64,000 nt of DNA from Candidatus Scatocola faecipullorum. Lineage in GTDB: Bacteria > Pseudomonadota > Alphaproteobacteria > RF32 > CAG-239. Below are positions 3,862 through 53,227 of the stretch, one piece after another. Location of the stretch: positions 76,758 through 140,757 of the forward strand of contig DVNC01000021.1 in assembly GCA_018714685.1 (NCBI GenBank). Direction: 5' to 3'. Position numbers and translations under genes: made by a program. Under the pieces are notes generated by a model. The model ran no database searches. It saw only the letters and a program-made list of their open reading frames with translations, and had not been told where the DNA came from. The number at the start of each line of letters is the position of its first letter. Within the stretch, counting starts at the first letter, position 1.

Positions 3862-3869
3862 GGATTTTC

Positions 3870-5477: not shown

Positions 5478-5535
5478 TTTTTAACCGATTGATTAGTTGT
5501 CGTTAGCCTGAGAAATGAGGCTTGTTTATGGTTTG

Positions 5536-5564
5536 TTGACAAATAAGCGCTGATATGATATTCT
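5536..5564 (+). promoter_or_regulatory. Candidate sigma70-type promoter for the Cys-rich protein gene
   Basis: TTGACA-N17-TATTCT, about 40 nt upstream of the 5604 start. Confidence 0.35.
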
Positions 5565-5603
5565 GACAATGGCTTTGGTTCAGTTATATCTATGAGGTGT
5601 ATT

Positions 5604-7763
5604 ATGAAAAACATTAGTTCATACTTGTGCGCCCTGTTTCTGGCTGGCTTTTTTGCGGCTGAAGCAGAGGCTTTGACGTATTCTGATTCTCCTTCATGGT
5701 ACACCGGTCTCATAGGCAAAAGTCAAAACCAAATTCTTGAACCAAAGCCCTTGGGCGACATTTCCCGACTGCTCAAGCTGGCGAAAGTTCATTTTATTGT
5801 TGACAGCAACGACAAGCTCGGTTTTGACAATATTGAACAGAGTTTTGACCATGACAATATTAACCGCTGTAAGGCCCTGGGCTTTAACAAGACCGGCGCC
5901 TGCGGCTCAAATCAAAGGGTGTCGCGCTACTGCCCTTATGACAATTCATATTATGACCAGTGCTGCGACATGAACTTTGCCTATTCCAAAGGCGAATGCT
6001 CTTATCCCAACACCATCAGCGGAAACTCCTGCGGCGGGAAATTCAAATGCTATTGCGACAGAAGCCTGTATCCTTATACCGCCACTTCTTGCCCTTCGCC
6101 GAAAATTCATAATGAAGACAAATGTGCCGAGGTAACTTATTCGGCAGGTAAAGCCGCGACCAATATTTATTATTCCGATTGTCTTTGTCCGTCTTCCTGG
6201 ATTACCTGCGACAGTTCAATCCATCAGAAAGGAAACGGGCAGAAATGTGAATATAACGGCGTTACCACTTATGCTTCATGCAGCTGTGAGCCCGGGTACA
6301 GTCTGCTTTGTGAGGAGTTCGGGCCGAAGTCGCCGATGGATTATTGTTTCCTGAAAGGAACGAAATATTACAAAACCTGCAAGACGGAAAAAGACGTTTG
6401 CGACAGTCTGGGATACAAATATTCCAAAGACAGTCCGTGTGATGCGGACTCGGTGATTGCAAGTTACTGTCCGCGGGGAAGCGGCAACACATATTTCTCA
6501 TGCAAAATCGATCCGGACAAATATTGCAAAAACCGTGGTTTTACAACATCTGCCTGCGGTGAATTTCAAACAGTCAGTTCCGAGAAATGCAATGTGCCGG
6601 GGTTTGGGGTACAGGGACAGTATCGCAAATGCAGCCATACCTGCAAGAGCCGTTTAGCGGCGGCTTATCCCAATTACAATTTTGACGGAGTGCGTTCGTC
6701 TAACGGCGGAACGATGGTCTATACCAAAAATGTGGTTGATAATAATCTGAGCGCTTCCAGCAACAGTTATTTCAAATCGGCCTATTCATTCCGAAACAAT
6801 TATTCGGAATGTGCCAATGTCGGCAAGCCGACGGTAACGGTTAATACCTCCGGCAGTACGGTAACTATTCTCTCCGGTATTAATTTGAGCGATGTAAACG
6901 TAAAACTGAATTTGAGCAACGGTTCGAGATATAACGTTAAATTGGACCGCCCGACAACATTTAACAATGCGACGGTTTCAACCAGCCAAACCGCCAAGAT
7001 GACGGTTTACAAAACAACGCTGTATGTTGAAGGGGGAACGAATCTTACGGGAATTAACCAGTTGGATGTTGAAGGCGAACAAAATGACGGAACGTCGGCG
7101 AATTCGTATATTTATGTGAGAGGGGCGGCTTCTTTGGGCAATGTTTATCTGTTCGGGCGTTCCCGCCTTTATGTGAGCGATACCAGCGGTTCGTCTTCGG
7201 CCAGAAATGTTTATATCGGCTGGCGGTATAACAACAGCAACGGCAATCGCGAAGATCACGGCCGGGCGCTGTTTGAACTGGCGGCCAATTCCAAATTTAA
7301 AGTAACCGGAACTGTTGAAATCGAAACCCGATGGGGCGATGCGCCTTTGTCGGGCAGCGGCGGTCCGGCTTTGTATATGCGTGATAAGTCGCAGCTTTAT
7401 GCCGATTATATAAAGAGTTATAATGCAGAGCATTTTATCGGTTATTATGCCATTGTCTGTGCGCGTAACTATTGGCTGCAAAATAAAAATGACCGTGGCT
7501 ATACCAAGATTAAATTCGGGCGGTATGCCAAACTTTTGACCAGAGACGGTTCCGGCTATTTCCGGGCATCATCGGGGGCAACATCCGGTAATTGTTATGC
7601 TTCCGGCTGTAATAATGTTCAGGAGATTATCAGTAAGTTTAAGTCATCGGATGTTGAATTGTCTGGTGCGGGGCATCATGACAAGTGGGCGATGTCTGTA
7701 CAATGGAGCCGTCCGGATACGACGGGCGCTTATAATACCTATTGCGGCAAGTGGTATTACTGA
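5604..7763 (+). CDS. Large secreted cysteine-rich repeat protein with beta-helix-like C-terminal half (no assignable family)
   Basis: GAGGTG precedes the ATG at 5604. Signal peptide MKNISSYLCALFLAGFFAAEAEA. About 29 Cys fall between residues ~90-350 in recurring Y-x-x-C-x-C modules. The Asn/Ser/Thr/Gly-rich C-terminal half looks like an adhesin passenger. Confidence 0.8.
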   Translation: MKNISSYLCALFLAGFFAAEAEALTYSDSPSWYTGLIGKSQNQILEPKPLGDISRLLKLAKVHFIVDSNDKLGFDNIEQSFDHDNINRCKALGFNKTGACGSNQRVSRYCPYDNSYYDQCCDMNFAYSKGECSYPNTISGNSCGGKFKCYCDRSLYPYTATSCPSPKIHNEDKCAEVTYSAGKAATNIYYSDCLCPSSWITCDSSIHQKGNGQKCEYNGVTTYASCSCEPGYSLLCEEFGPKSPMDYCFLKGTKYYKTCKTEKDVCDSLGYKYSKDSPCDADSVIASYCPRGSGNTYFSCKIDPDKYCKNRGFTTSACGEFQTVSSEKCNVPGFGVQGQYRKCSHTCKSRLAAAYPNYNFDGVRSSNGGTMVYTKNVVDNNLSASSNSYFKSAYSFRNNYSECANVGKPTVTVNTSGSTVTILSGINLSDVNVKLNLSNGSRYNVKLDRPTTFNNATVSTSQTAKMTVYKTTLYVEGGTNLTGINQLDVEGEQNDGTSANSYIYVRGAASLGNVYLFGRSRLYVSDTSGSSSARNVYIGWRYNNSNGNREDHGRALFELAANSKFKVTGTVEIETRWGDAPLSGSGGPALYMRDKSQLYADYIKSYNAEHFIGYYAIVCARNYWLQNKNDRGYTKIKFGRYAKLLTRDGSGYFRASSGATSGNCYASGCNNVQEIISKFKSSDVELSGAGHHDKWAMSVQWSRPDTTGAYNTYCGKWYY

Positions 7764-7765
7764 CA

Positions 7766-7800
7766 AAGAAAAGCCGTCTCGGGTGAGGCGGCTTTTTGTT
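7766..7800. terminator. Bidirectional terminator between convergent genes
   Basis: Hairpin agccgtctc-gggt-gaggcggct flanked by an A-rich run on the left and a T-rich run on the right. Confidence 0.5.
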
Positions 7801-8298
7801 TTATTTTTTGATATTGAACAGGTGCTGAAAAGCCAGCCAATGTGTGTAGTTGATTTTTGTTTTGGCAGAAAAAATGTCCTGTATGTTCAGCCAGGCGGCA
7901 TTGCCGTTTTCCGGCGTGCGCCAGGGCGAGACGGAAGTGTCAAAACCATAGGAAGAAGCATCATAGACAATAAAAGTCTGATCATAAACGCAGTATTCTC
8001 CGAAAGGGCGGGCATCCTCGGCAAAATAATTGACAATCTGCTGGTAAGATTTTTCGCCCCAGTCAAGTTCAAACTCAATGCCGGTTTCTTCATACAGCTT
8101 GCGGTAAAGGCAGCCGCGGAAGTCTTCCCGGCGTGAAACCGTACCGCCCGGAAATTCGGGAACGGATACCTGCGGCGGATAAGTAACCAGAACTTTTTCG
8201 TCTTTTACCAGAATGGCAAAATAGCCTTTCTGGTGCAGGGGGATAATTTCATCGGCATATTTTTCATGACCGCGACGGTCATAAAAGATGTCACTCAT
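7801..8298 (-). CDS. Nudix hydrolase
   Basis: Nudix box GGTVSRREDFRGCLYRKLYEETGI (GX5EX7REUXEEXGU). The gene overlaps the gmk stop by 8 nt. Confidence 0.8.
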   Translation of the reverse strand: MSDIFYDRRGHEKYADEIIPLHQKGYFAILVKDEKVLVTYPPQVSVPEFPGGTVSRREDFRGCLYRKLYEETGIEFELDWGEKSYQQIVNYFAEDARPFGEYCVYDQTFIVYDASSYGFDTSVSPWRTPENGNAAWLNIQDIFSAKTKINYTHWLAFQHLFNIKK

Positions 8299-8968
8299 TC
8301 GCTTCGGCTTCCTTAATCAATTCGTTGACAAACTTCTTCAGTCCGGTTTGACGGACGCGTTTCATTCGTTCGCCGGAAATAATTTTCTGCACTTTGATAA
8401 TGGTTTCTTCAAGATTTACGTTGACGATGACATAGTCAAATTCGTCCCAATGGGTGATTTTATCGAGAATCATGTTCATTCGTTTATCGATGATTTCTTT
8501 GCTGTCGGTGCCGCGGTTTTCAAGCCGGCGGCGGAGTTCTTTGATGGAGGGCGGCAGCAGGTAAATGGTGACGACGTCATCTTTGGCTTTTTCTTTCATT
8601 TGGCGCGCGCCGGCCCAGTCCATGTCGAACAGCACGTCTTCACCGACGTTGATGAAACTGTCAACTTCAGAGCGCAGCGTTCCGTAACGGGAACCGTATT
8701 GGGAATCGACATATTCGTAAAAAGCGTCCTGAGCCAGAAATTCGTCATATTGTTTGTCGGTGATGAAATAGTAGTCAACGCCGTCAACTTCGCCTTCGCG
8801 GGGTTGGCGGGTGGTTACCGAAACCGAGAACTTGATGTTGGGGTCGCGGCGCAGAATTTCTTTGACAACAGCGCTTTTTCCGGTGCCGGAAGGGGCCTCG
8901 ATGATAAACATGGCGCCGCGGCGGACTTTTTTCAGACGGTCGATGATTTCTTCCATAATGTGCTCCAT
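8291..8968 (-). CDS. gmk: Guanylate kinase
   Basis: P-loop RRGAMFIIEAPSGTGKS and the TTRQPREGEVDGVDYYF motif. Confidence 0.9.
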   Translation of the reverse strand: MEHIMEEIIDRLKKVRRGAMFIIEAPSGTGKSAVVKEILRRDPNIKFSVSVTTRQPREGEVDGVDYYFITDKQYDEFLAQDAFYEYVDSQYGSRYGTLRSEVDSFINVGEDVLFDMDWAGARQMKEKAKDDVVTIYLLPPSIKELRRRLENRGTDSKEIIDKRMNMILDKITHWDEFDYVIVNVNLEETIIKVQKIISGERMKRVRQTGLKKFVNELIKEAEANE

Positions 8969-9041
8969 TTAGCTGATGACTTTTATTTTTAATGCCTATA
9001 ATATATCCGTTAATTGTTAAAAAGTCTTTAGGAAAATAGCC

Positions 9042-9809
9042 ATGATCAGGAACAAAAACGTTTTAATTACCGGAGCCAGTTCAGGCATCGGCGAAGCTTT
9101 GGCCGTGTATTATGCCCAAAACGGCGCGGCCAATTTGTTTATCTGCGGGCGCAATGCGGAACGTCTGGCCAAAGTGCGCGAGGCATGCGAACGGTATGGG
9201 GCAAAGGTTTCTGCCGAAGTGCTGGACGTGACGCAGCGCGAGGCGGTTAAAAACTGGGTGGAGCGTTGCAATGTATCGGCGAATTTGAACATTGTGATTG
9301 CCAATGCCGGGACCGGGACAATCAATGAAACCGAAGAGGCGGTGCTGAACACTTTTAATACCAATGTCAACGGCGTGATTAATACGGTGCTTCCGGCGCT
9401 GGCGGCATACCGGAGCCGTCCGTCCCGTTATCACGGAGACATGGCGGTGGCGGTTATCAGCTCAATGGCCGGTTATCACGGTTTGCCGACCTGTCCGGCA
9501 TACAGTGCCAGCAAAGCCTGTGTGAAAGCCTGGGGCGAAGCGCTGCGTCCGGTTTTAAAACGTGAGGGAATCCGGATGAGCGTTGTTTGCCCGGGGTTTG
9601 TGCGGTCACGAATTACGGATCAGAACACCTGTCCGATGCCTTTTTTTATGGAGGCACCGCAGGCGGCGGAGATTATTGCCAGAGGTATTGAAGCCGATAA
9701 GGGGATTATTGCTTTTCCGTGGCCGTTGCGGCTGGCGGTGTGGCTGGCGTCGATTGTGCCGAACTGTCTGAGCGATTTGATATACGGCCGTCTGCCGCCG
9801 AAGGCATAG
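9042..9809 (+). CDS. Short-chain dehydrogenase/reductase (SDR)
   Basis: TGASSGIGEA cofactor motif, NAG, and YSASK catalytic motif. 255 aa. Confidence 0.85.
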   Translation: MIRNKNVLITGASSGIGEALAVYYAQNGAANLFICGRNAERLAKVREACERYGAKVSAEVLDVTQREAVKNWVERCNVSANLNIVIANAGTGTINETEEAVLNTFNTNVNGVINTVLPALAAYRSRPSRYHGDMAVAVISSMAGYHGLPTCPAYSASKACVKAWGEALRPVLKREGIRMSVVCPGFVRSRITDQNTCPMPFFMEAPQAAEIIARGIEADKGIIAFPWPLRLAVWLASIVPNCLSDLIYGRLPPKA

Positions 9810-11088
9810 TTTTGCCCCGGGGATATTTGCGGCGTTCCAGACGCATGAGAATCCAGAGCAGGGCAAGACCGGGTATCATCATCAGGGTCGTTATCAAGAA
9901 AAAGGCCGGCCAGGAGATAATTTCTTTCATATAGCCGCTGCTGGCGGCAAAAACGTCGCGGGCCAGGCTCATTAATGACGAAAGCAGCGCATACTGGGTA
10001 GCGGTATAAGCGACATTGCAAAGCGAAGACAGATAGGCAACCAGTGCGGTGGAGGCCATGCCGCCGGCGATGTTGTCAAATGAGAGAGTCAGCATCAGCA
10101 TGGGAACGCTGTGGCCGACATAAGCCTGAACGACATACATCAAATTGGATATTCCCTGCAAAATGCCGCAAAGCATCAGCCCCTTAAGCATATTCATCCG
10201 GCTCATGACCAGTCCGCCGACCAGCCCGCCGAAAATGGTGGCTCCCATGCCGAAGATTTTGGAAACAAAAGCAATTTCGCCTTTGCTGAATCCCATATCG
10301 TGATAGAAGGGAAAAGCCATCGGGGCCATATAGGAATCGCTCATGCGATAGAAAAAAATAAATGCCAGTATTAATGCCCAGTCGTTTCTTTTCATAAAGT
10401 CAACGAAAGGATCGTAAACGGCTTTATTCATAAAGTCGTTGAAATTTTTGTAAGACTGTTCGCTGAATTTTTCGGCTTTGGAGGGCTCGCGGGAGAGCAG
10501 AATGGTGAGAATGCCGACAAGCGTGCCGAGCGCCATCAGCAGGTAAACTTGGTTCCAGCTCATGAAAGAGGCCATCCAGATGGCACCGGCACCGGAAGCA
10601 ATGGTGCCGATGCGGTAGCCGATGATATAGACAGCGACGCCGGCCCCTTGTTCTTTGAGGGAAAAACTTTCGATACGGTAGGCGTCGAGAACAACGTCCT
10701 GTGAAGCGGAGGCAATAACGACAATGACGCAGAGCACAGCCAGCAGGCGAAGATTGGCTGCGGGGTCAACGGTGGAAATGAGAGCGATGCCCGCCATCAA
10801 AAGCAGCTGGAAAAAAAGAGCCCAGCCCCGGCGGCGTCCGAGCAGACCGAATCCGGGGAGTTTCAGCCGGTCGAGCAGCGGCGCCCACAGCCATTTGAAA
10901 CTGTAAGGAAGTTTGACGAGAGAAAAAAGCCCGATGGCAATATAGGAAATGCCTTCATCTTTCAGCCAGAGATTAAGCGTGCTGAAAACCAATAAAAGCG
11001 GAAAGCCGCTGGAAAAGCCCAGTCCGACCATGATGAGCATGCGGGGATTGAAGTAAACCCGCAGCGCTTTTATCCATTTCATAAGCAT
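9706..11088 (-). CDS. ampG: AmpG-family muropeptide MFS permease
   Basis: N-terminus LGFSSGFPLLLVFSTLNLWLKDEGISYIAIGLFSLVKLPYSFKWLWAPLLDR is characteristic of AmpG. About 12 predicted TM segments. Confidence 0.85.
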   Translation of the reverse strand: MLMKWIKALRVYFNPRMLIMVGLGFSSGFPLLLVFSTLNLWLKDEGISYIAIGLFSLVKLPYSFKWLWAPLLDRLKLPGFGLLGRRRGWALFFQLLLMAGIALISTVDPAANLRLLAVLCVIVVIASASQDVVLDAYRIESFSLKEQGAGVAVYIIGYRIGTIASGAGAIWMASFMSWNQVYLLMALGTLVGILTILLSREPSKAEKFSEQSYKNFNDFMNKAVYDPFVDFMKRNDWALILAFIFFYRMSDSYMAPMAFPFYHDMGFSKGEIAFVSKIFGMGATIFGGLVGGLVMSRMNMLKGLMLCGILQGISNLMYVVQAYVGHSVPMLMLTLSFDNIAGGMASTALVAYLSSLCNVAYTATQYALLSSLMSLARDVFAASSGYMKEIISWPAFFLITTLMMIPGLALLWILMRLERRKYPRGKTMPSAADGRISNRSDSSAQSTPATPPAATATEKQ

Positions 11089-11317
11089 TTAATTCTCCCT
11101 GTGTTTTTACTTTAGGGCAGAGAGGTTAAATTTTATCTAATAAGCGGCGGATAAGTTTATAAAATTTTAAAAGTAATTCTTATTATCAGTTTTGCACAGG
11201 TCGTTCCCGTAAAAACAAAGGTTTGGCGAAAAGTTTAAATTTGCTGTTTACGCCGCGTTTCGAAGCGGCTATTGTCAAGAAAAACTAACTTCACGGGAAG
11301 ATAAAAGGACTTAGATT

Positions 11318-13603
11318 ATGGCGGATATTCAAATAGTTAAAAGAGACGGCCGGCGGCAGTCGTATGATAATAAAAAAGTGGCGGCCGTGGTTGCCCGAGC
11401 CGCGGCCGGGTTTGAGCTGGATGTTTCTCCTCTGCTGGACGCGGTGAACAATTATGTCAAGGAGGGTATCGGCAGCCAGGAAGTGATGAATTTTCTGATT
11501 TTGACGGCGTTGAATTTGACCAGTGTGGAAAATCCGGATTGGAAAAACGTTGCGGGGCGATTGAAACTGTTTGATCTGTATAAGAAGACGGCTTTGGCAA
11601 GGAACTGCAATCATTGTTATGACCGTCTGTACGATTATCCGGTCTTTTTGCAGCAGATGTGGGCGGATGGTTGTTATGACCGGGAATGGCAGGCGAAATA
11701 TTCGGCGGAAGAACTGGCCGAAGCCGGAACCTTTATTAAACCGGCGTATGATTTGGTGTATGATTATGCCGGCATCAATTTGCTGATTAAGCGTTATTTG
11801 TGCGAATACAACGACCGGATTGCCGAGCTGCCGCAGGAAATGTTTCTGACGATTGCCCTGCTGATTGAGCAAAATGAAAAGCCGGAAAATCGCATGGCGC
11901 AGGTAAAAGATACCTATGAAAAACTGGCTAACCGGAAAATTTCGCTGGCAACGCCGCTGCTGATGAATCTGCGGCGGCCGCACGGCAATTTGAGTTCCTG
12001 TTTCATTACGGTTATGGATGACAACCGGGAATCGATTTTTTATGTGATTGATCAGATTTCCGCCATTTCAAAGTTTGGCGGCGGTGTCGGTGTCAACATT
12101 TCCCGGGTGCGCTGCAAAGGGGCGCGCATTAAGGGGATTAAAAATTCCTCCGGCGGCGTGATTCCCTGGATCAGAATTATCAACGACACGGCGGTAGCGG
12201 TCAATCAGCAAGGAAAACGCAAAGGGGCCGTAACCGTTTCGCTTGATATGTGGCATATGGATATTGAAGATTTTCTTCAGCTGCGGACGGAAAACGGCGA
12301 CCAGCGAATGAAAGCCTATGATATCTTTCCGCAGGTGGTGGTGCCGGATTTGTTTATGAAGAAAGTGGAAGCCGATGAAGACTGGCTGGTGGTTGACCCC
12401 TCGGAAGTGCGGACAAAATATCAGGTTGAATTGGGCGATTTGTGGGGGGAAGAATTTAACCGGGTCTATGAGCAGCTTTATTTGGATGCGCAGTTCGGCA
12501 AGCTGGAGATGTTTAAGTTTATTTCGGCGAAGGAGCTGCTGAAAAAAGTGATGCGCTCGCAGATTGAAACAGGTATGCCTTATATCGCTTTCAAGGATAC
12601 GCTGAACAAGTATAATCCGAACAAGCATGACGGCGTGATTGTCGGTACAAACCTGTGTACGGAATCGCACAGCAACGTCAAGCCGACACGGTTTGATGCG
12701 GAGCGAATCGAAAACGGCAAGATTATCCGCGAAATGAGCGGCGGTTTGGTTCATGTCTGCAATCTGGTGTCTATCAATCTGGCCAATGTTGACAGCGATG
12801 AAGAACTGGAAAGCATTTGCCGGACTTCGGTGCGGATTTTGGATAATGCGATTGATTTTACCGAAGTGCCGATTTTGGAAGGGCGGCAGCATAATCTGCG
12901 CTATCGCACCATCGGGGTCGGGGCGATGGGGCTGGCCGACCATTTGGCCAAGAACAATATTCCTTATATCAATTCGGCCGATTATGTTGATGAGCTGTTT
13001 GAAAAAATGGCAATTTACAATATTCGTGCCAGTATTGCGGCCGCACGAGAAAAAGGAACGTTTGAGGCTTATGAGGGTTCTGACTGGCAAAAAGGGATTA
13101 TTATGGGCAAACGCCAATTATGGTTTAATGCCAATTCCAAACATAAAGAGGCCTGGAACGACATTTTCAGAGACTTGCAGAAATACGGCATTCGCAATTC
13201 GCAAATCAGTGCGATTGCTCCGAATACAAGTTCGTCGCTGATTCAAGGGTGCAGCGCCTCGGTGCTGCCGGTTTACAGCAAGTTTTTTGTGGAGACGCAC
13301 GGCAAAGGAAGCATTCCCAACTGTCCGCCTTTTATCAAGGACAAATTCTGGTTTTATCAGGAAAACCGCAATATTAACCAGAAGGTGGTGATTGAGGTGA
13401 TGTCGCGGATTAACAAGTGGATTGACACCGGCATTTCAATTGAGCTGATGTATAATCTTAACCGCAATATCCGGGCGCGGGATATTTATGAAACGATTAT
13501 GGATGCCTGGAAAAAAGATATTAAAACCCTTTATTATACGCGGACGATTCAGAAAGACGGTTCGGCTTCCGAAAAAAGCGAATGTGTCAGCTGCGCCGGT
13601 TAA
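11318..13603 (+). CDS. nrdA: Ribonucleoside-diphosphate reductase alpha subunit (class I)
   Basis: ATP-cone N-terminus VKRDGRRQSYDNKKV, active-site block GTNLCTES, C-terminal CxxC tail ECVSCAG. 761 aa. Confidence 0.95.
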   Translation: MADIQIVKRDGRRQSYDNKKVAAVVARAAAGFELDVSPLLDAVNNYVKEGIGSQEVMNFLILTALNLTSVENPDWKNVAGRLKLFDLYKKTALARNCNHCYDRLYDYPVFLQQMWADGCYDREWQAKYSAEELAEAGTFIKPAYDLVYDYAGINLLIKRYLCEYNDRIAELPQEMFLTIALLIEQNEKPENRMAQVKDTYEKLANRKISLATPLLMNLRRPHGNLSSCFITVMDDNRESIFYVIDQISAISKFGGGVGVNISRVRCKGARIKGIKNSSGGVIPWIRIINDTAVAVNQQGKRKGAVTVSLDMWHMDIEDFLQLRTENGDQRMKAYDIFPQVVVPDLFMKKVEADEDWLVVDPSEVRTKYQVELGDLWGEEFNRVYEQLYLDAQFGKLEMFKFISAKELLKKVMRSQIETGMPYIAFKDTLNKYNPNKHDGVIVGTNLCTESHSNVKPTRFDAERIENGKIIREMSGGLVHVCNLVSINLANVDSDEELESICRTSVRILDNAIDFTEVPILEGRQHNLRYRTIGVGAMGLADHLAKNNIPYINSADYVDELFEKMAIYNIRASIAAAREKGTFEAYEGSDWQKGIIMGKRQLWFNANSKHKEAWNDIFRDLQKYGIRNSQISAIAPNTSSSLIQGCSASVLPVYSKFFVETHGKGSIPNCPPFIKDKFWFYQENRNINQKVVIEVMSRINKWIDTGISIELMYNLNRNIRARDIYETIMDAWKKDIKTLYYTRTIQKDGSASEKSECVSCAG

Positions 13604-43670: not shown

Positions 43671-43910
43671 TTAGTCAATCCATTCGATTTTTAATTTTTT
43701 ATCCAGGCAGGACGCAATATAATTGCACTGGGCAAGGTCGGGATTGGCTCGTCCTTCTTCGATGGCATTGATGAAAGACGAGGGAATATCGGTCATGCTT
43801 TCCCAAAGGTGCAATTCCAAACCTTGTTTCTGTCGCTGCTGTCGGCAGGCATCGCCAAATTCTCGGCGGAGTTGTTTGAGATTTCTTAAACGTTGATTTT
43901 TTTCTATCAT
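43671..43910 (-). CDS. Small XRE-like helix-turn-helix protein
   Basis: 79 aa. SMTDIPSSFINAIEEGRANPDLAQCNYIASCL resembles the second half of a Cro/C1 HTH. No partner gene is present. Confidence 0.45.
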   Translation of the reverse strand: MIEKNQRLRNLKQLRREFGDACRQQRQKQGLELHLWESMTDIPSSFINAIEEGRANPDLAQCNYIASCLDKKLKIEWID

Positions 43911-44136: not shown

Positions 44137-45108
44137 TTAATAAACGACTTTGGTTAAGTATAATCCGCAGGCAGGGGCGTTGACCCCGGCGGCGGCACGG
44201 TTCTTCGCCTCTAATATCCGTTTGACATCTTCGGGGTGCAAATGTCCGTCGCCGACCATCTTCAGCGTGCCAACCATATTACGCACTTGGTGGTGCAGGA
44301 AAGAGCGGGCTTCGACAATGAAATGAATTTCTTCTCCTCTGACCTCAATATCCAGTCTGTCCAGCGTTTTAACCGGGGATTTGGCCTGGCATGCCGCGGC
44401 GCGGAAAGAACTGAAATCATGGTGCCCGATAAGATAACCGGCTCCCTCACGCATTTTTTCAACATCCAAAGGCACCGGAACCCACCAAACCCGGTTTTTT
44501 TCCAATACGGCCGGAGCCCGGCGGTTAAGAATCCGGTAGAGGTAACCGCGTCCTCTGGCGCTGAAACGGGCATGGAAATCATTTCCGACTTTTTCAACCG
44601 CAATAACGCTGACCGGAGCTTCCATTTCGCGCAAACGGGCGTTTATCGCTTCCCGTAACTTCCAATCGACCAAATCTTCTTTTAAGTCGAAATGTGCAAC
44701 CTGAGCTGTGGCATGGACGCCGGCGTCTGTTCTTCCTGCTCCGGAAACAATGATTTTATCGGTCTTCTGCAGGCGTCTTCCGGTGCCCGCGTCCTCACGT
44801 ACGTCTATGTACGCTGCGGTTCTGCGCTCCGTGGAGCCACCAGCATAAGCCTCACTAAAATCATTGTTGAAAAAAGCATCGGTCTTCTGCAGGCGTCTTC
44901 CGGTGCCCGCCTCCTCATACAATTCTTGAATGGGGAAATCCTCTTCTGATTTTTCCTTGTTATTAAGAGAGCAGGTATCCGTGTCGTTGACAGGAGTGAA
45001 GCAGTTCAGGGCTTTTTGCAAATAGTCCTGCACCGAGGGGCCGTCCAGTTGTTCCTGCCAGCCGAGGAGGCTGGTTCCGTCATATTCGATTGTTATTTTG
45101 TAGCGCAT
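44137..45108 (-). CDS. truA: tRNA pseudouridine-38/39/40 synthase TruA carrying an in-frame repeat insertion
   Basis: MRYKITIEYDGTSLLGWQEQ...SVQ and the catalytic GAGRTDAGVHA. 323 aa, versus about 250-270 aa for TruA proteins I know. Confidence 0.9.
   Translation of the reverse strand: MRYKITIEYDGTSLLGWQEQLDGPSVQDYLQKALNCFTPVNDTDTCSLNNKEKSEEDFPIQELYEEAGTGRRLQKTDAFFNNDFSEAYAGGSTERRTAAYIDVREDAGTGRRLQKTDKIIVSGAGRTDAGVHATAQVAHFDLKEDLVDWKLREAINARLREMEAPVSVIAVEKVGNDFHARFSARGRGYLYRILNRRAPAVLEKNRVWWVPVPLDVEKMREGAGYLIGHHDFSSFRAAACQAKSPVKTLDRLDIEVRGEEIHFIVEARSFLHHQVRNMVGTLKMVGDGHLHPEDVKRILEAKNRAAAGVNAPACGLYLTKVVY
44747..44917. repeat. GTAC-centred palindromic element, copy I, plus a duplicated left arm, inside the truA ORF
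   Basis: Terminal inverted repeat acaatgatttta (44747) / taaaatcattgt (44856). Centre cacGTACgtctatGTACgctgcggt. An exact 33-nt repeat occurs at 44758-44790 and 44878-44910. Confidence 0.8.
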
Positions 45109-46358: not shown

Positions 46359-48140
46359 ATGGCGGATATGATTAAAAAAGTTCTAAGTGTTTCATTTTTG
46401 GTAATTTTGGCTTCGTGCCGTTCTGCTCCCGTAGCGCAAACCGGCGAAGCGGTCATTGAGCAGGAAACGGCCGTTATCAATCCCGAGCCGGTCAAGGGGC
46501 GGGTGGACGTTTACGAATCAATGGCGCGCAGCGTCAAGTACAATACCGGCGCCACCCTGCGCGAGCTGCGGAAGAAGGTGGTCTATGACAAAAACACCAA
46601 TCCGCGCAGCATTGTCAACAATATCCTTAAAATGAAGAACCTTAATCAGAATCCGCTGTATGACAGTTTGCGCGCGCTTGACTTTGCGATTATTTATGCT
46701 GCGGTCAATTTGAGCGACGACGAGCATTTTACCAGCGCCTATTTGAATGCCAAGGCTTCGCAGACTGCGGCTCTGGCTGCGATTAAGGCGCACAAGGACG
46801 CTTTGTTTGCACAGCGAAAGATTAAGGAAATCGAGCGCATGGTTAAGCGGGAGCAGCGCGAGGTCGATACGCTGAAAGCCAAGCAAGACCGCCTGGGTGT
46901 GCTGAACAGCGATGACGAGGCCTATAAAAAAGGGCTGGAGGTTGTTATCTATAAATTGTCGGAAATTAAGAAAAAGCTGGAGGAAGAAGTTGTCCTTTAC
47001 CGCCAGGTTACAAGGATTGACAGTGATAAGCTGACGCTGGAAGGACGCCGCTTTTATGAAATGGACGATTTGGACGCCGGGCTTAAGGCCGGTGATTTTC
47101 AGGCTTCGGCATTTGCAAACCGACAGGAATTCAAATTGGCGGACGAGCTGAACAGGCAATACAGTTATGAGCAGGTACGCACCATGCTGCGGCATGAGTA
47201 TCCGCAGGTGGAACGTCTGGAAATCAACGGTTTTGACATTGAGGATCCGGTTTATTTGAAAGAATTGCAGCAACGGGCCGATTTTCAGTCCAATTATCTG
47301 GCAGACAAGGTCAGACAGTATATGGAAGCCGGCAATGGCGGTGCCAGACGGGCACTGCGGCAGGAGGCCTTTGAAGAGATGGCGACGGCGATCATGACGC
47401 AGAATGAAGTGGCCTATAATGTGGTTATGCGGGCAGATTTGGATGATGAGGCGGTCAACAAAAGAATTGCCGAGCTGAAAAAAACGATAGCGGAAGGCGA
47501 AAAACGCTATCGTCCGGGCGTTAATCAGAAAATAGACCTGCTGGAACAGAAAACGGCTCTGATTAATTTAGAGCGGCAGGCCAGCCAGATTTTGGCCGAA
47601 AAGGCAATGGCAATCCGCGCCCTGTATTTTTATGCCGGATTTAATCCGTTTACACCCAAGCTGACGGAAGCGCCGGTCAAGGATATCAGCGGCAATTTGA
47701 AGGTCGGTTTTAACAAAGACGTGGTCGAAATGCTGGCGAAAAAAGTTCCGCAGCCGGAGACTCCGCTGAAAACGGAGAAAAACGACTGGGCCAAGCAGGA
47801 CAACTGGCTGGAAAAACTGCTGGAAGGAAAAGACAAACCGCAGAGCGAATCGGTCAATATACGGCGTTATGTCGGTAATTTCGAGCTTTATGAGGGGGCG
47901 GTCTATAACAAGCGCAAGATTATGCAGCTGGGCTCTTACCGGCAAAAGGAAAATGCGGATATGGACTGGAAGATGCTGAAAGAGCTTTATCCCGAACTGC
48001 GGGCATACAGTCCGGTGGTGGAAAAGGCACAAGTCAAGGGCGCGCCGATGTATCGCCTGATTATCAGACAGGAAAACGGAGGTCTGATGGATTTGTGCAA
48101 TAAGCTGCGGGCAGATAAAACGGACTGTCTGCTGCGTTAA
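46359..48140 (+). CDS. Coiled-coil lipoprotein with a C-terminal SPOR (peptidoglycan-binding) domain
   Basis: Lipobox LVILASCRS, a long helical/charged middle, and the C-terminus IMQLGSYRQKENADMDWKMLKE...APMYRLIIRQENGG...LCNKLRADKTDC, which fits the SPOR pattern. Confidence 0.7.
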   Translation: MADMIKKVLSVSFLVILASCRSAPVAQTGEAVIEQETAVINPEPVKGRVDVYESMARSVKYNTGATLRELRKKVVYDKNTNPRSIVNNILKMKNLNQNPLYDSLRALDFAIIYAAVNLSDDEHFTSAYLNAKASQTAALAAIKAHKDALFAQRKIKEIERMVKREQREVDTLKAKQDRLGVLNSDDEAYKKGLEVVIYKLSEIKKKLEEEVVLYRQVTRIDSDKLTLEGRRFYEMDDLDAGLKAGDFQASAFANRQEFKLADELNRQYSYEQVRTMLRHEYPQVERLEINGFDIEDPVYLKELQQRADFQSNYLADKVRQYMEAGNGGARRALRQEAFEEMATAIMTQNEVAYNVVMRADLDDEAVNKRIAELKKTIAEGEKRYRPGVNQKIDLLEQKTALINLERQASQILAEKAMAIRALYFYAGFNPFTPKLTEAPVKDISGNLKVGFNKDVVEMLAKKVPQPETPLKTEKNDWAKQDNWLEKLLEGKDKPQSESVNIRRYVGNFELYEGAVYNKRKIMQLGSYRQKENADMDWKMLKELYPELRAYSPVVEKAQVKGAPMYRLIIRQENGGLMDLCNKLRADKTDCLLR

Positions 48141-48147
48141 AAAATAT

Positions 48148-48176
48148 TTGTCAAAAGGCGGCAGATAAGTTAAAAT
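48148..48176 (+). promoter_or_regulatory. Candidate promoter of the pentapeptide/T4CP gene pair
   Basis: TTGTCA-N17-TAAAAT, 39 nt upstream of the ATG at 48215. Confidence 0.4.
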
Positions 48177-48214
48177 GGCGGTTAGTCTGTAAATTAGGGA
48201 GCTGGCGCGGTAAG

Positions 48215-49474
48215 ATGGCTGAGGACGAAAAGAATAATTTTGACGGAAGTCCGTCTCACAGAGAAAAAACGGCAGAAAAGAAGCGTTCCGATTATGCCGT
48301 CCGCAGCAAAATGCCGGAACGGGACGAGAATGAAGGCGCTGATACAGGGTTTTCCTGGAGTGCGGTGGCTCATCGGGACAGTGCGGCGAATGCCGCGGCG
48401 CTGGGACCGGATAATTTTATGTCTAACCGGATAGAATTCGGCGGCAAGAATCTTGAAAACGGCAAATTTGCCAATGAAAATTTTGAAAATGCCAATTTTT
48501 CGGTAGCAAACCTGAAAGGCGTCGATTTTTCCGGCGCAAACCTGAAAGGCGTCGATTTTTCCGGTGCCGATTTGAGCGATGCTAATCTTTCCGGTGCCGA
48601 TTTGAGCGGTGCCGTGCTTTCCAATGCGGTTCTGAAGCACACGAATTTCAGCGGGGCGGTTCTGAACGGAGTGGTTCTGACCGATGCCGATCTGGATAAT
48701 GCTATTTTGCTGGATATTACGATTGATGCCATTGCATTGGAAGATTTGCAGGAACTGGTCGAATATCTGGCTAAATATGCGCCGCATAAGCTTAATCTGG
48801 CCAAAATGAATCTGACGATGTTCAATTTGGCCAAAATCGATCTGAAGAATCTTAATTTGCGTGGGGTTGATTTTACCGGCTGCGATTTTACCGGCGTTAA
48901 TATCATGGAGCTTGATTTAAGCGAGTGTATTATTACGCCGCAGCAGATAGCCCAGGCTTTGGGGCGGGTGCCGAATGCCGAGGAACTGCGGCGGATTATG
49001 GCGCCGAAGGTTAAGCCGAAAGGGCCGAAGTCGCAGGGTATTGACCTGACCGATTTGTTTTTTGACAACGGCAAAGAAGCCGGTGTTTGGGAAACTGCGA
49101 AAGACAAAGGTATTTCCACCGCGAAGATTGTGGACATGATCAAGGCAGGGCACAAGGTTTATCGTCGGGTGGTCAAGCGTCCGGAAGGGAACAGGTTTGA
49201 AGCGGCGGCCAAAGAAAGCGCCGAACGCAAAGAAGCTCAGGTATCCAACTCCAATGAAGAACTCAAGAAAGTTTTGGAAGAAAACAAAAGGGCGCTGATT
49301 GAGAAACATAAGCGGGAGGAACTGGAAGCCCGCCGGAACAAAAAAATGGAGCTGGAACAGGCGCTGGCCCGGGAAAACGAACAGGAAAAAACGCCCGAAA
49401 AAACCGAACAGCCAAAAATCAGGCCGTTGACGGCGGAGCGGATTGCGTCGTTCCGCGACCGTTCAAGAGATTAG
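48215..49474 (+). CDS. Pentapeptide-repeat protein with a Lys/Glu-rich C-terminal tail
   Basis: Two blocks of A(D/N)LxG-type pentapeptides: NFSVANLKGVDFSGANLKGVDFSGADLSDANLSGADLSGAVLSNAVL... and LNLRGVDFTGCDFTGVNIMELDLSEC. Confidence 0.85.
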   Translation: MAEDEKNNFDGSPSHREKTAEKKRSDYAVRSKMPERDENEGADTGFSWSAVAHRDSAANAAALGPDNFMSNRIEFGGKNLENGKFANENFENANFSVANLKGVDFSGANLKGVDFSGADLSDANLSGADLSGAVLSNAVLKHTNFSGAVLNGVVLTDADLDNAILLDITIDAIALEDLQELVEYLAKYAPHKLNLAKMNLTMFNLAKIDLKNLNLRGVDFTGCDFTGVNIMELDLSECIITPQQIAQALGRVPNAEELRRIMAPKVKPKGPKSQGIDLTDLFFDNGKEAGVWETAKDKGISTAKIVDMIKAGHKVYRRVVKRPEGNRFEAAAKESAERKEAQVSNSNEELKKVLEENKRALIEKHKREELEARRNKKMELEQALARENEQEKTPEKTEQPKIRPLTAERIASFRDRSRD

Positions 49475-49480
49475 CCGGCA

Positions 49481-51850
49481 ATGAGAGAAAAACTTTATCT
49501 GGAATCCGATAGTTCTTTTTTCAGACGTTTTGTGCTGCTGCCGATTATCGTTTTGCTGATGGTGGTCGGTTTTGTCCTGTCGGCGGTGGTTTTTCTGAGC
49601 CTTTCCCATGTGATGTTTTATGGTTTCAATGAACAGTCGCTGGCAGATTTGGGGCATTTCTGGCTGAGTTGTCTGACCCGTCCGCAAAGGCTGTGGGAGG
49701 CTTATGCCGAGTGGTTTTACGTTTTCCGGCTGGCGGCGGCTTATCACAAGCTTGTGCCGGCCAGCTTTATGCCTTTGCTGGGGCCGCTGCTGTTTATCGG
49801 CGCAACGGTGTGGGCTTATGTCAAGAGTCCGAGTTCGTTTAAGCTGTGGTATCGACTGAAAAATCATTATGCCAAATTTGAAGATGTTCAGAAAATGGGC
49901 ATTTTGAACGGAACTCTGTTTGCCTTGGGGCGTTTTCAGAATCAGGTGCTGCGGTTGTGTCGTCCGCTGTCGGTTTTTGTCTGGGGCGGTGAGGGGTTAG
50001 GCAAAAGCAGCTGCGTTTCCCTTCCGTCGGTTCTCGAATCTGATGATACCTGTCTGGCGGTGGCCGACAGCACGGGAATTCTGGCAAAATATTCAAGCGG
50101 TTACCGGTCGCGGTTGGGTAAGGTTTTTTATTTTAACTGGGGTTTGACCGATGTGCCGGAAAAGGGCGAATTCTGGCCGCGTTGGAATCCGGTGTCGCCT
50201 AAGGATCTGCCGGTTCGCGGCGAGGGGCGTCTGGCTTATATCAAAATGTTGGTTTCCTGCCTTTTCCCTTCCGAAAAGCATAATTTTTGGGAAAAAATCA
50301 GTCAGACTGCTTTGGAAGGATTGCTGCTGTTTTATGTTTCCAAAATCGAACAGGCCATGGCCAATGACTATTTTCTCAGCGGTTTGCTTGAAAAAGGCCG
50401 GATAGCCAAAGAAGACAGAGAACTTTTGCAGAGCTATTACCGGGCAATGAATCCGGAATTGGCGGCGCCGGCGCTGAAAGCTTTGGAGAGCGGGAAACTG
50501 ACGCTGGACAATTATCTGCCGGTGGGCAGTTGGGAAAATGTTTCCGAATCCTGGCGGGGAAAGGAGTTTTGTCTGCCGATGTTTGCCGACTGCCTGATGC
50601 AGCGTTATTTTGCAATTACACAGGAAGACGAAGAAAAAGCCGCGGTCGGCGGATTTAAGGTTATGCTGGGCGAGTTTATCAAAGAAGCGCAGGTTTTCGG
50701 TTATGACCGCCGCGCCATTCAGGTTATGCAGCAGTTGTACTATATGACCCGCAAACAGCGGCGGATTATCTTTACCATGCTGATGGCTCCGCTGACGGTT
50801 TTCCGCAAGAGCACCATCCGGTCGCGCACCAGTTTGAGCGATTTTTCCCTGAACCAGCTGCGCGGCATTTGTGAAGACGGCAGTTGGCGGGTTACCACGC
50901 TCTACACCGTGGCGGATGCGGTGAAATCTTCCGGGTTTATGAGCCGCTTTCTGATTGATATGCTTATTGCGCATAATCTGCGCCCGCGTTCGGAGGAAGG
51001 GCCTTTTGCGCTGGCTTTTGTTCTGGATGATTTCGAACGTTTGCCGAAACTTTCAAAGCTGGCGGCAGGACTGACACAAGGGCCCGAACTCAGAATGTCT
51101 TTCCTGATGCTGACGGACGGGCTGCACCTGATTCAGAACAAATACGGCATGGAAGAGCTGGAAGATATTATCGGCAACAGTTCGGTCAAGCTGATGATGG
51201 CCGAAGACAAGCGTCGGATGAGCGAGCATTTTAACAAACTGGCGGTTTACGGAACCCGTTCGGTTCAGATTCCGGCGGTGGATGCGGGAGCCTTTTACAA
51301 GGTTAAGAAAGGGTTGGCCGATGCCAATTATTATCACCGAATTGCCAGAGATTTGATGAATCATCCGAAGACGGTATCCTTTGACAAATCGCATTATCTG
51401 CTTTTGGTGGAAGGTTTTTATCATCTGCCGGTAAATATTTCTTCCAATAATTTTCTTCGCGACGGCAAGCTGAAAAGCAAGGCTGCCTGCGGTGCCAGTT
51501 ATATTCTTGATGAAACGCTGGCGGCGCAGCGCAATGTGCAGGATGTGGATGCGCCGGATTTGATTGCGGTTTTGCAGGAGGGCGGCATCAATATTGAAAA
51601 AGAGGAAGACGTCGATATTTATCTGGAAGACAAGTATGACGAGGTGGTCGAAACGCTGGAGGAAGATTCCGACGTGCAGACGGTGTGGGCGGAGGAAATT
51701 TCAAACCGGTGGAATTCGGCGCCCTCGGCGGCAGAAAATCCGCAGGATCTGAGGGTGAAGAATGATGACTGGTGGCTGGACGAGGAGGCTTTTAAAACGG
51801 CGGACAGCGATAATGCGAATCCTTTTGAAAGCTTGAACGAAAAGAATTAA
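49481..51850 (+). CDS. VirD4/TraG-family type IV coupling protein-like ATPase (divergent, orphan)
   Basis: Two N-terminal TM helices, Walker A VWGGEGLGKSSCVSLPSVLE, the RWNPV block, Walker B FVLDDFERLPKL, then LMLTDGLHLIQNKYG, and an acidic C-terminal tail. Starts 6 nt after the previous stop. Confidence 0.75.
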   Translation: MREKLYLESDSSFFRRFVLLPIIVLLMVVGFVLSAVVFLSLSHVMFYGFNEQSLADLGHFWLSCLTRPQRLWEAYAEWFYVFRLAAAYHKLVPASFMPLLGPLLFIGATVWAYVKSPSSFKLWYRLKNHYAKFEDVQKMGILNGTLFALGRFQNQVLRLCRPLSVFVWGGEGLGKSSCVSLPSVLESDDTCLAVADSTGILAKYSSGYRSRLGKVFYFNWGLTDVPEKGEFWPRWNPVSPKDLPVRGEGRLAYIKMLVSCLFPSEKHNFWEKISQTALEGLLLFYVSKIEQAMANDYFLSGLLEKGRIAKEDRELLQSYYRAMNPELAAPALKALESGKLTLDNYLPVGSWENVSESWRGKEFCLPMFADCLMQRYFAITQEDEEKAAVGGFKVMLGEFIKEAQVFGYDRRAIQVMQQLYYMTRKQRRIIFTMLMAPLTVFRKSTIRSRTSLSDFSLNQLRGICEDGSWRVTTLYTVADAVKSSGFMSRFLIDMLIAHNLRPRSEEGPFALAFVLDDFERLPKLSKLAAGLTQGPELRMSFLMLTDGLHLIQNKYGMEELEDIIGNSSVKLMMAEDKRRMSEHFNKLAVYGTRSVQIPAVDAGAFYKVKKGLADANYYHRIARDLMNHPKTVSFDKSHYLLLVEGFYHLPVNISSNNFLRDGKLKSKAACGASYILDETLAAQRNVQDVDAPDLIAVLQEGGINIEKEEDVDIYLEDKYDEVVETLEEDSDVQTVWAEEISNRWNSAPSAAENPQDLRVKNDDWWLDEEAFKTADSDNANPFESLNEKN

Positions 51851-51910: not shown

Positions 51911-53227
51911 ATGATGGAAGAGACCCTTTTTTCAAATAACGTCAAACGTCCTTTGGCTGACCGCCTGCGTCCGCAAAGCCTTAAAGAGGTTGTGGGGCAG
52001 GAACATATTGTCGGCGATGATGCGCCGTTGGGACGAATGATTAAAAGCGGCAAGATTACCTCCTTTATTCTCTGGGGGCCTCCCGGCTGCGGAAAAACAA
52101 CAATCGCCCGTTTGATTGCCGAGAATACAAATTTATATTTTGAGCAGATTTCCGCCGTTTTTTCCGGCGTGGCCGATTTGAAACGGGTGTTTCAGTATGC
52201 GCAGGAACGTCGGGCCACGCAGGGAAAAGGCACTTTGCTGTTTGTCGATGAAATTCACAGGTTTAACAAATCGCAGCAGGACGGCTTTCTGCCCTATGTG
52301 GAAGACGGCACGATTATTCTGGTCGGAGCAACGACGGAGAATCCTTCTTTTGAACTTAACGCGGCGTTGCTGTCGCGGTGTCAGGTTTTTGTTTTGAACC
52401 GTCTGAACGAAGATAATTTTGAAGAACTGCTGGCGCGGGCAGAACGGGAGACCGGACGGAAGCTTCCGGTTGACGGAGAAGCGCGGCAGATTATGAAATC
52501 GACCGCCGACGGGGACGGTCGGTATATCCTTAATTTGGCGGAAAGTGTCTGGGCTTATGCCAAAGAAGGAGAGGTTTTTGACAAAGACAGCATTCTGAAA
52601 GTCATCCGTTCACGGGCACCGATTTATGACAAGGGGCGTGACGGTCACTATAACCTGATTTCGGCAGTGCATAAATCGCTGCGCGGTTCCGATGTCGATG
52701 CGGCGTTATATTGGGCAGCGCGTATGCTGGAGGCGGGAGAGGATCCGAAATATCTGCTGCGGCGGCTGACCCGTTTTGCCGTTGAAGACGTTTCGTTGGC
52801 AGAGCCTAATGCCGTAACTCAGGCCATTGCCTGCTGGGAGACATACGAGCGGCTTGGTTCGCCGGAAGGCGATTTGGCGATTATGCAGTTGGTGGCTTAT
52901 CTGGCGACGGCGCCGAAATCCGTGGGCGTTTACAAAGCGATGTATAAAGCCCGGGAACTTGCCCGCAAGACCGGTTCGCTGATGCCGCCGAAAAATATTC
53001 TGAACGCGCCGACCAAACTGATGAAACAATTGGGTTACAGCGAAGGATATGAATATGATCCCGATTGCGAAGACGGCTTTTCCGGTGCCAATTACTTTCC
53101 CGACGGCATGAGTCGGGTTAAGATTTATTTTCCGGTTGACCGCGGCTTTGAACGGGAGATTAAGAAGAGGGTGGAGTATTTTGATAAACTCCGGAAGGAA
53201 AAGCAAAATCGCAAGGCGGAAAACTAA
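51911..53227 (+). CDS. rarA: Replication-associated recombination protein A (AAA+)
   Basis: LADRLRPQSLKEVVGQEHI...LWGPPGCGKTTIARLIA...LFVDEIHRFNK plus the MgsA C-terminal domain. Confidence 0.95.
   Translation: MMEETLFSNNVKRPLADRLRPQSLKEVVGQEHIVGDDAPLGRMIKSGKITSFILWGPPGCGKTTIARLIAENTNLYFEQISAVFSGVADLKRVFQYAQERRATQGKGTLLFVDEIHRFNKSQQDGFLPYVEDGTIILVGATTENPSFELNAALLSRCQVFVLNRLNEDNFEELLARAERETGRKLPVDGEARQIMKSTADGDGRYILNLAESVWAYAKEGEVFDKDSILKVIRSRAPIYDKGRDGHYNLISAVHKSLRGSDVDAALYWAARMLEAGEDPKYLLRRLTRFAVEDVSLAEPNAVTQAIACWETYERLGSPEGDLAIMQLVAYLATAPKSVGVYKAMYKARELARKTGSLMPPKNILNAPTKLMKQLGYSEGYEYDPDCEDGFSGANYFPDGMSRVKIYFPVDRGFEREIKKRVEYFDKLRKEKQNRKAEN

Follow-up and report, generated by a model that had tools for sequence, protein, structure and literature searches.

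A pentapeptide-repeat protein paired with a degenerate VirD4-family coupling protein in the core chromosome of gut Alphaproteobacteria

What might a protein that resembles the coupling ATPases of type IV secretion be doing among housekeeping genes? The question is raised by a 64,000-nucleotide stretch of DNA from Candidatus Scatocola faecipullorum (assembly GCA_018714685.1, contig DVNC01000021.1; the whole stretch is called the window here), in which three genes, g1, g2 and g3, encode a SPOR-domain lipoprotein, a pentapeptide-repeat protein (PRP) and a VirD4-like type IV coupling protein (T4CP). In type IV secretion the coupling protein is the gate for substrates, and the usual view is of one such protein per system, encoded with the channel or the relaxase. 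A sequence-only reading of the window had described three co-directional genes with an orphan coupling ATPase, and offered three interpretations: a remnant of a conjugative system, a satellite of a distant type IV secretion system (T4SS) with its adaptor or substrate, or an independent envelope or DNA-handling system. Open reading frames (ORFs) and Pfam matches bear out the three genes and their common direction:

46359 to 48140, + strand: g1, an ORF of 593 amino acids (aa); a TTG at 46341 is an alternative start
48215 to 49474, + strand: g2, an ORF of 419 aa
49481 to 51850, + strand: g3, an ORF of 789 aa whose start lies 6 nt past the g2 stop

Of these interpretations the satellite is the best supported, yet it is not proven. 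We tentatively propose, with somewhat less than even confidence, that g2 and g3 form an accessory coupling-protein complex that hydrolyses ATP poorly or not at all and serves the VirB-type system of this bacterial lineage, g1 being a loosely linked envelope lipoprotein.

Both its sequence and its AlphaFold2 (AF2) model indicate that g3 has a true VirD4-family coupling-protein fold. The protein scores above the Pfam cut-offs for T4SS-DNA_transf (PF02534; 63 bits, cut-off 20.1) and TraG-D_C (24.9 bits, cut-off 22), and the model (pLDDT 81, pTM 0.75) comprises a nucleotide-binding domain, an all-alpha domain and an N-terminal anchor. In Foldseek the best match of this model is Cag-beta (8dol; E = 3e-14, TM 0.61-0.65), followed by TrwB (TM about 0.6), HerA and DotL, with VirB4 lower. 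The VirD4/TraG motif order noted in the sequence-only reading is present, but the catalytic Glu and the Gln motif are missing from it:

49514 to 49825, + strand: N-terminal membrane anchor of g3, hydrophobic helices at about aa 12-115 in the sequence, helices 13-47 and 93-115 in the model
49985 to 50011, + strand: Walker A motif GGEGLGKSS, with G174 and K175 invariant in 17 homologues
51014 to 51040, + strand: non-canonical Walker B motif AFVLDDFER, with Asp516 kept and the catalytic Glu replaced by Asp517
51101 to 51148, + strand: degenerate Gln motif FLMLTDGLHLIQNKYG (canonical form LLIGQDLGQIxxKYG)
51761 to 51793, + strand: C-terminal acidic Trp motif NDDWWLDEEAF, then NPF, recognised by its conservation in the clade

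How far these motifs have changed was followed through 59 g3 orthologues, with plasmid VirD4 and T4CP2, a second coupling protein described below, as comparators. The GK[ST] of Walker A and the Walker B Asp516 are intact in all 59 and also in both comparators. The position of the catalytic Glu, 517, is occupied by D in 51 orthologues, N in five and G in three, and never by E, whereas E is found in 22/22 T4CP2 and 2/2 plasmid VirD4 sequences. Gln546 survives in 2/59 orthologues and Gln550 in 1/59; both are present in every T4CP2 (22/22) and plasmid VirD4 (2/2). The combined loss of the Glu and the Gln motif suggests that hydrolysis by g3 may be weak or absent. An exhaustive profile search returned 334 representatives at E <= 1e-30. 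The g3 clade is marked by the C-terminal motif WW[LM]x[DE]xxF…NPF, the non-canonical Walker B and the lost Gln motif; the acidic Trp tail is also carried by relatives of about 1,000 aa (P0334, P0336, P0343 and P0354) and is absent from T4CP2. A plasmid search with g3 gave only five weak matches, all of them canonical VirD4 in virB clusters, and the closest of these plasmid VirD4s stand at the end of clusters holding virB2-virB11 and MobA/L.

T4CP2 was found as a second coupling protein in 22 loci. It is about 738 aa long, 28-30% identical to g3, and matches PF02534 at E = 1e-56. Seven assemblies, all from relatives of the window genome, contain both g3 and T4CP2; mean identity in these seven genomes is 89% for T4CP2 and 57% for g3, and g3 evolves about four times faster. 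An insertion in the all-alpha domain (ANDYFL…NYLPIGSW) is common to g3 and T4CP2 and missing from plasmid VirD4, an indication that the two arose by duplication within the chromosomal lineage. Because these relatives hold a separate canonical VirD4, the term orphan is misleading for g3, which is a second, degenerate paralogue. Duplication of the whole module was also considered, and was rejected: the proteins encoded around T4CP2 (p420, p164, p323, p207, p182, p680 and p165) are not homologues of g1 or g2 (hhalign probabilities of 0.9% or less), so only the T4CP was duplicated.

The genes around T4CP2 form a conserved cluster in the order p164, p420, T4CP2, p207, p182 (L063 8035-13237 and equivalents in L060, L062-L082 and L107-L180). 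The p164 and p420 genes, 5' of T4CP2, encode membrane proteins with a common N-terminal domain, and a 207-aa protein followed by a SUKH_6-like protein of 182 aa is encoded on the 3' side; the 207-aa and 182-aa proteins could form a toxin/immunity or an effector pair.

In some lineages T4CP2 is adjacent to virB genes. One locus runs from a giant virB10 and virB11, through intervening genes, to T4CP2 (L064, 7-7626), and another from T4CP2 to virB8-virB9-virB10 (L163, 14157-19374). VirB11 homologues with 70-91% identity are common in gut alphaproteobacterial metagenome-assembled genomes (MAGs), which also contain virB8-virB8-virB9-virB10-virB11 clusters (for example L088 176-10990 and L089 582-10993); the virB10 product in these MAGs is a giant of 2,085-2,203 aa in which beta-flower repeats precede the TrbI domain. 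From the virB clusters and the canonical T4CP2 it follows that a VirB-type system, scattered over the chromosome and equipped with a canonical coupling protein, exists in the wider lineage. When the VirB8-11 proteins of the lineage were compared by tblastn with all collected loci and the window, matches were found in T4SS loci only.

The distribution of the module was determined in a homologue scan that used one genome per species and collected 80 loci, to which one more was added by protein look-up. Of these, 57 are orthologous to the window module; the other 22 of the 80 scan loci hold T4CP2. The orthologous loci share the gene order hsp33-recX-truA-gfo-g1-g2-g3-rarA-(crcB)-rluC, with g1 adjoining g2-g3 in 54/57 species-level genomes and the g2-g3 pair present in 57/57, so that the three-gene module suspected by the sequence-only reading is real, and that reading's refuting condition, genes that never lie together in relatives, fails. 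In three genomes (L020, L038 and L057) g1 is missing and g2-g3 still lie beside rarA; L020 and L057 are without the whole truA-gfo-g1 block, and L038 is without g1 only. Homologues of g3 of about 780 aa number 79, every one from metagenomes or MAGs labelled Alphaproteobacteria. Among the carriers, all MAGs from gut or rumen, is Candidatus Scatocola, which is placed by NCBI in the Rhodospirillales. The module is a core-chromosome, vertically inherited locus in a purely housekeeping context.

Within this fixed setting the three genes diverge far faster than those on either side. Identity to the window is 29-65% for g3, 30-61% for g1 and 43-75% for g2, as against 81-94% for rarA. The median ratio of nonsynonymous to synonymous divergence (dN/dS) is 0.082 for g1, 0.091 for g2 and 0.096 for g3, with 0.030 for gfo and 0.022 for rarA; g1, g2 and g3 are under purifying selection. 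Within given genome pairs, g1-g3 show about double the synonymous divergence (dS) of the flanking gfo and rarA, and in one genome (L040, compared with L032 and L046) dS is about 1.0 for g3 and 0.18 for gfo. The raised dS relative to the flanks suggests that recombination has replaced alleles inside the module.

The partner that never leaves g3 is the PRP encoded by g2, in which two features stand out:

48422 to 48964, + strand: pentapeptide-repeat region of g2, about aa 70-250, from Pfam and NCBIfam stretches
49412 to 49471, + strand: conserved basic C-terminal tail of g2 (…RIASFRDRSRD), from comparison of orthologues

The protein matches Pentapeptide (PF00805) at E = 2e-33 in four stretches, with tandem A(D/N)LXX repeats, and its PDB sequence matches are pentapeptide proteins only. 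Its best score against the Qnr/MfpA families of NCBIfam is 48 bits, for cut-offs of 240-500. No signal peptide was found in g2, which is predicted to be cytoplasmic. The Arg-rich C-terminal tail is present in 58/58 orthologues (RDRSRD, SRGGNER and RDRGRE are examples), and the core is still conserved in a relative with 29% GC. That g2 is better conserved than g3 (43-75% compared with 29-65%) is easier to reconcile with a partner inside the cell than with a secreted effector.

The pairing itself extends well beyond the lineage of the window. A PRP gene lies directly 5' of the T4CP gene in the WWL-tailed relatives of about 1,000 aa named above (loci L100-L103), and in 15 further metagenome loci from other lineages with a GC content of 38-59%. 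Thirteen of these 15 pairs were examined in detail. Their T4CPs are 720-780 aa long, most with a recognisable GxxxxGKT Walker A; the Walker B reads DE or DD, and the Gln motif is retained in most. The distance from PRP stop to T4CP start is -4 to 27 nt. All 17 distant PRP partners examined end in a basic C-terminal tail. The PRP-T4CP pair is ancient and chromosomally inherited, and recurs in distant lineages with a canonical T4CP. A Peptidase_A24 (prepilin peptidase) gene was seen directly after, or overlapping the end of, a PRP-coupled T4CP gene in two unrelated lineages (L148 12235-12948; L104 2690-3394).

In the accessory complex that we propose, the canonical coupling role would be held by the slowly evolving T4CP2 of the scattered chromosomal VirB-type system. 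The paralogous copy g3, in which the anchor, the nucleotide-binding fold, Walker A and the all-alpha domain survive, would bind ATP, hydrolyse it poorly or not at all, and serve at the inner membrane as an accessory receptor or scaffold. Its dedicated partner would be the g2 protein, which would bind it through the Arg-rich tail and work as a regulator or adaptor, possibly as a DNA-mimic cofactor or plug, rather than as a fast-evolving effector; g2 and g3 would be translationally coupled. The pair may descend from an ancestral PRP-coupled T4CP and have been retained beside the canonical VirD4. A g1 protein without barrel strands would use its SPOR domain to link outer membrane and peptidoglycan. 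In one subclade g1 is syntenic with the pair, but its functional tie to g2-g3 is uncertain.

Several observations weigh against this proposal. An Asp-Asp Walker B is also found in relatives whose motifs are otherwise canonical, and the change from Glu to Asp alone is therefore no proof that g3 is inactive. Of some 75 PRP-T4CP loci, not one has virB genes less than 10 kb away. T4CP2 and virB are placed in relatives and in the wider lineage, and their presence in the window's own genome is presumed; the VirB11 matches could not be traced to any g3-bearing assembly. The binding of g2 to g3 is something that we infer. Finally, the conserved adjacency of g1, together with a gene cluster in one relative that is described next, points to an envelope system of the TolC type.

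The sequence-only reading had described g1 as a coiled-coil lipoprotein with a SPOR domain. The lipoprotein and SPOR assignments are upheld, and what had been taken for a coiled coil corresponds in the model to a TolC-like pair of long helical hairpins:

46359 to 46418, + strand: signal peptide and lipobox L-A-S-C of g1, from the sequence; Cys20 is invariant in 29 homologues
46500 to 47738, + strand: TolC-like helical domain of g1, with two long helical hairpins at aa 122-218 and 327-425
47898 to 48137, + strand: SPOR domain of g1, predicted to bind peptidoglycan (Pfam PF05036; Foldseek)

The SPOR domain scores 23 bits against PF05036 (cut-off 21) and resembles the SPOR domain of RlpA (6i05) in Foldseek with a TM of 0.69. 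In the AF2 model of g1 (pLDDT 83, pTM 0.70) two long helical hairpins are combined with a SPOR fold at the C-terminus, the antiparallel helices 122-179/184-218 and 327-382/388-425 forming two tandem repeats, and the top 45 or so Foldseek matches in the PDB are all TolC, CusC, OprM, MtrE or VceC. Signals in the sequence itself are weak: Pfam OEP (PF02321) gave no match at E <= 1, NodT was matched at E = 0.24, and Klebsiella TolC at E = 0.05 as a single marginal match of the profile against the PDB. The link to this family comes instead from a distant relative (L100), in which the gene between gfo and the PRP gene encodes a 723-aa outer-membrane factor (OMF) with an OEP score of 88 bits. The g1 profile aligns with this OEP-positive protein in hhalign at 99.8% probability (E = 1e-28, 550 columns, SPOR end included), and tblastn links the same OMF to 53 g1 orthologues; g1 is thus a TolC-family homologue because its profile aligns with a syntenic OEP-positive protein. 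At the first barrel hairpin g1 is about 40 aa shorter than the OMFs of L100 and of a further relative, L103, and DSSP finds no strand of at least 3 residues before aa 521 in the model, with only 3-residue turns at the barrel-hairpin positions. Sequence and model together indicate a decayed derivative of a TolC-family OMF that has lost the barrel hairpin and carries a SPOR domain.

In L100 (NCBI GCA_002410125.1, DHQH01000110.1) the OMF gene belongs to a tight co-directional six-gene cluster at 2307-13069, beside the same gfo as in the window. It encodes, in order, the OEP-type OMF with its SPOR-like end, two HlyD-like proteins, a Peptidase_M50/HlyD fusion, a PRP and a T4CP of 1,022 aa. The HlyD-like and M50 genes were searched for in the other loci and not found, leaving the six-gene cluster in L100 only. 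A g1-type gene adjoining PRP-T4CP was not seen in L101, L102 or the 15 metagenome loci. A 385-aa protein encoded 5' of the PRP gene in another lineage was compared as a candidate and is not g1-like.

Could the three genes instead be, as the sequence-only reading had also suggested, an envelope system of their own? The TolC-like duct of g1 would then combine with g2 and g3 into a trans-envelope machine independent of any T4SS, or into its reduced remains, the VirD4-like hexamer acting as inner-membrane motor or receptor and the PRP as substrate, plug or cofactor. The homology of g1 to an OEP-positive OMF and the cluster of OMF, HlyD-like, HlyD-like, M50/HlyD, PRP and T4CP in one relative support this, as do the retention of g1-g2-g3 beside gfo from the window's lineage with 47% GC to L100 and L103 with 29-31% GC and the PRP-T4CP loci that have no virB nearby. 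Although it is the main rival, we think it unlikely: the six-gene cluster is known from one genome only, the window module encodes no membrane-fusion protein, g1 lacks a barrel hairpin and is modelled without beta strands, g2-g3 stand without an adjoining g1 in 3/57 genomes, in L101 and L102 and in each of the 15 metagenome loci, and we know of no characterised T4CP that works without a VirB4-type system. A bolder form, in which OMF-SPOR lipoprotein, PRP and VirD4-like ATPase are the core of an unrecognised envelope-spanning machine independent of a VirB channel, with a TolC-type duct coupled to a hexamer of the T4CP type in place of an ABC or RND pump, L100 adding HlyD-like adaptors and M50/HlyD, and the lineage of the window being a reduced, non-hydrolysing derivative, is a long shot. 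A role in DNA handling or division, with g3 acting on the chromosome like FtsK or HerA or as a septal scaffold, g2 as a DNA-mimic regulator and g1 brought to the septum by its SPOR domain, would suit a vertically inherited core-genome locus whose neighbours include recX and rarA in the window and, in L100 and L103, a gene of the ParA/MipZ family. SPOR domains recognise denuded glycan at the septum, and the fold of g3 is related to HerA and to FtsK-type translocases. However, the nearest relatives of g3 in sequence and fold are VirD4, Cag-beta and TrwB, not FtsK, a motor would hardly be expected to lose catalytic residues, and the functions of neighbouring genes are circumstantial, so that this role seems quite unlikely.

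It is about as doubtful, and if anything a little more so, that g2 is a secreted effector and g3 its dedicated coupling protein for delivery through the VirB channel into another cell. Every PRP partner examined does end in a basic, Arg-rich tail, which resembles the C-terminal signals of VirB/D4 systems reportedly described by Vergunst et al. in 2005, and secreted pentapeptide-repeat effectors such as PipB2 and SopA are among the g2 matches. But the core of g2 is better conserved than the putative receptor and is kept across very distant lineages, which is atypical of effectors, a one-substrate T4CP conserved to this depth is without known precedent, and g3 appears to have no hydrolysis-competent site. 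The sequence-only reading had placed a conjugative remnant among its interpretations and had allowed for an ordinary virD4 displaced from its operon; we reject both a conjugative or integrative remnant and a displaced virD4 as very improbable. In their favour are the closest plasmid homologues, which are the VirD4 ends of virB2-virB11 plus MobA/L clusters, and the 64 kb without T4SS genes. The ORFs, however, are intact in 57 genomes, and dN/dS values of about 0.08-0.10 in g1-g3 (about 0.09 overall) rule out a decaying remnant; conserved housekeeping genes flank the module, there is neither an integrase, a relaxase nor another mobile-element gene nearby, and the composition shows no anomaly; and the seven relatives hold, besides g3, a separate canonical VirD4 that is virB-adjacent in some lineages. 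Defence against phages or plasmids, which we likewise reject, is the least probable explanation of all. T4CP/HerA-like ATPases do occur in defence systems (HerA-Sir2 and DndH are among the fold matches of g3), and the module evolves faster than its flanks with a sign of allele replacement, but the locus is a fixed part of the core genome rather than of a variable island, dN/dS is low, there is no nuclease or effector domain, and the PADLOC search suggested in the sequence-only reading yielded nothing useful for g1-g3, with no match at E <= 0.1 except a weak DNA-binding HTH for g1 (E = 0.043).

Compared with known systems, g3 shares with the VirD4/TraG coupling proteins (Cag-beta, TrwB of R388, alphaproteobacterial plasmid VirD4) the anchor, the P-loop and all-alpha domains, a PF02534 score above threshold and an acidic C-terminal tail. 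It differs from them in the replacement of Glu by D, N or G, the lost Gln motif, the extra insertion in the all-alpha domain and the WWLxExxF…NPF tail, and in having no adjacent virB or relaxase gene, always following a PRP gene and coexisting with a canonical VirD4. A precedent for a T4CP partner is given by the title of the 8dol entry, according to which CagZ binds Cag-beta and regulates its ATPase. The cagZ gene adjoins cag-beta, and g2-g3 is like CagZ-Cag-beta, TraM-TraD and DotM/DotN/IcmSW-DotL in that a small or medium-sized cytoplasmic protein is encoded next to the T4CP. Unlike CagZ, TraM or DotM, g2 is an unrelated pentapeptide-repeat beta-helix with a basic tail, and its interaction with g3 is putative. 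From Qnr, MfpA and AlbG, the DNA-mimic PRPs with which it shares right-handed quadrilateral beta-helix repeats (PF00805), g2 differs in being twice as long, in its charged N- and C-terminal extensions with the basic tail, and in its genetic coupling to a T4CP instead of gyrase-related functions.

The rvh T4SS of Rickettsiales, for which Gillespie et al. are said to have described the degenerate duplicate components RvhB4-II, RvhB8-II and RvhB9-II, resembles the system of the gut lineage in several ways: both are of the VirB type and lie scattered over the chromosome, and in both virB8 is duplicated and a catalysis-deficient paralogue retained. In rvh, unlike the gut lineage, VirD4 is not duplicated; the gut carriers, for their part, are Rhodospirillales-like MAGs with a giant virB10 containing beta-flower repeats. 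The g1 protein shares with TolC/NodT-family OMFs (PF02321; OprM, CusC) the N-terminal lipidated Cys and the two tandem long helical hairpins. Unlike them it has no OEP match, a deleted first barrel hairpin, no strands in the model, an added SPOR domain and no adjacent gene for a membrane-fusion protein or inner-membrane pump.

Each domain family in the module is already known. What the locus adds is a second clade of T4CPs. In many uncultured host-associated Alphaproteobacteria this clade has a fixed place in the core chromosome, always paired with a PRP, and in one lineage it has lost its catalytic residues and remained under purifying selection. If g2 and g3 do form an accessory or regulatory complex, they would represent a new class of T4CP partner, a beta-helix of the DNA-mimic type, and a natural example of a pseudo-ATPase T4CP, while g1 documents a TolC-family protein that has lost its barrel and acquired a SPOR domain. 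In the searchable literature we found no description of the PRP-T4CP pairing, of a core-genome degenerate VirD4 paralogue or of a SPOR-fused OMF without a barrel, and nothing relevant on RF32 with T4SS or on orphan T4CP paralogues. As all carriers are uncultured, function is inferential.

The surroundings of the module in the window agree with a chromosomal housekeeping setting. The precomputed Pfam annotation, which covers about 1.3-61.9 kb, consists of housekeeping genes throughout, including ribonucleotide reductase, nusA/infB, pnp, hsp33, recX, truA, rarA, crcB, rluC and asmA. Within that annotation there are no VirB, Tra, Dot, relaxase, pilus or integrase genes, as the sequence-only reading had noted for T4SS channel, relaxase and pilus genes. 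GC is uniform along the window, with no compositional island. Two further features adjoin the three genes:

48148 to 48176, + strand: sigma-70-like promoter candidate TTGTCA-N17-TAAAAT, 5' of g2, matching at 10/12 positions
51911 to 53227, + strand: rarA, the downstream neighbour of g3

The promoter proposed in the sequence-only reading is present as a site, but the region contains 10 promoter-like sites for 6.1 +/- 2.8 in shuffled sequence, which is not clearly above chance. No terminator-like site was found between g3 and rarA, in agreement with that reading.

Two observations concern genes on the other side of the module. The truA gene (44137 to 45108, - strand) carries an in-frame insert of about 75 aa that is missing from many orthologues (BLAST coverage 74%); it contains a 40-nt direct repeat (44758-44797 and 44878-44917, 120 nt apart) that encodes AGTGRRLQKTD twice. 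Between recX and truA lies an ORF of 79 aa (43671 to 43910, - strand), with no Pfam match on record, which is a called gene in the matching ENA contig (L087 4344-4583).

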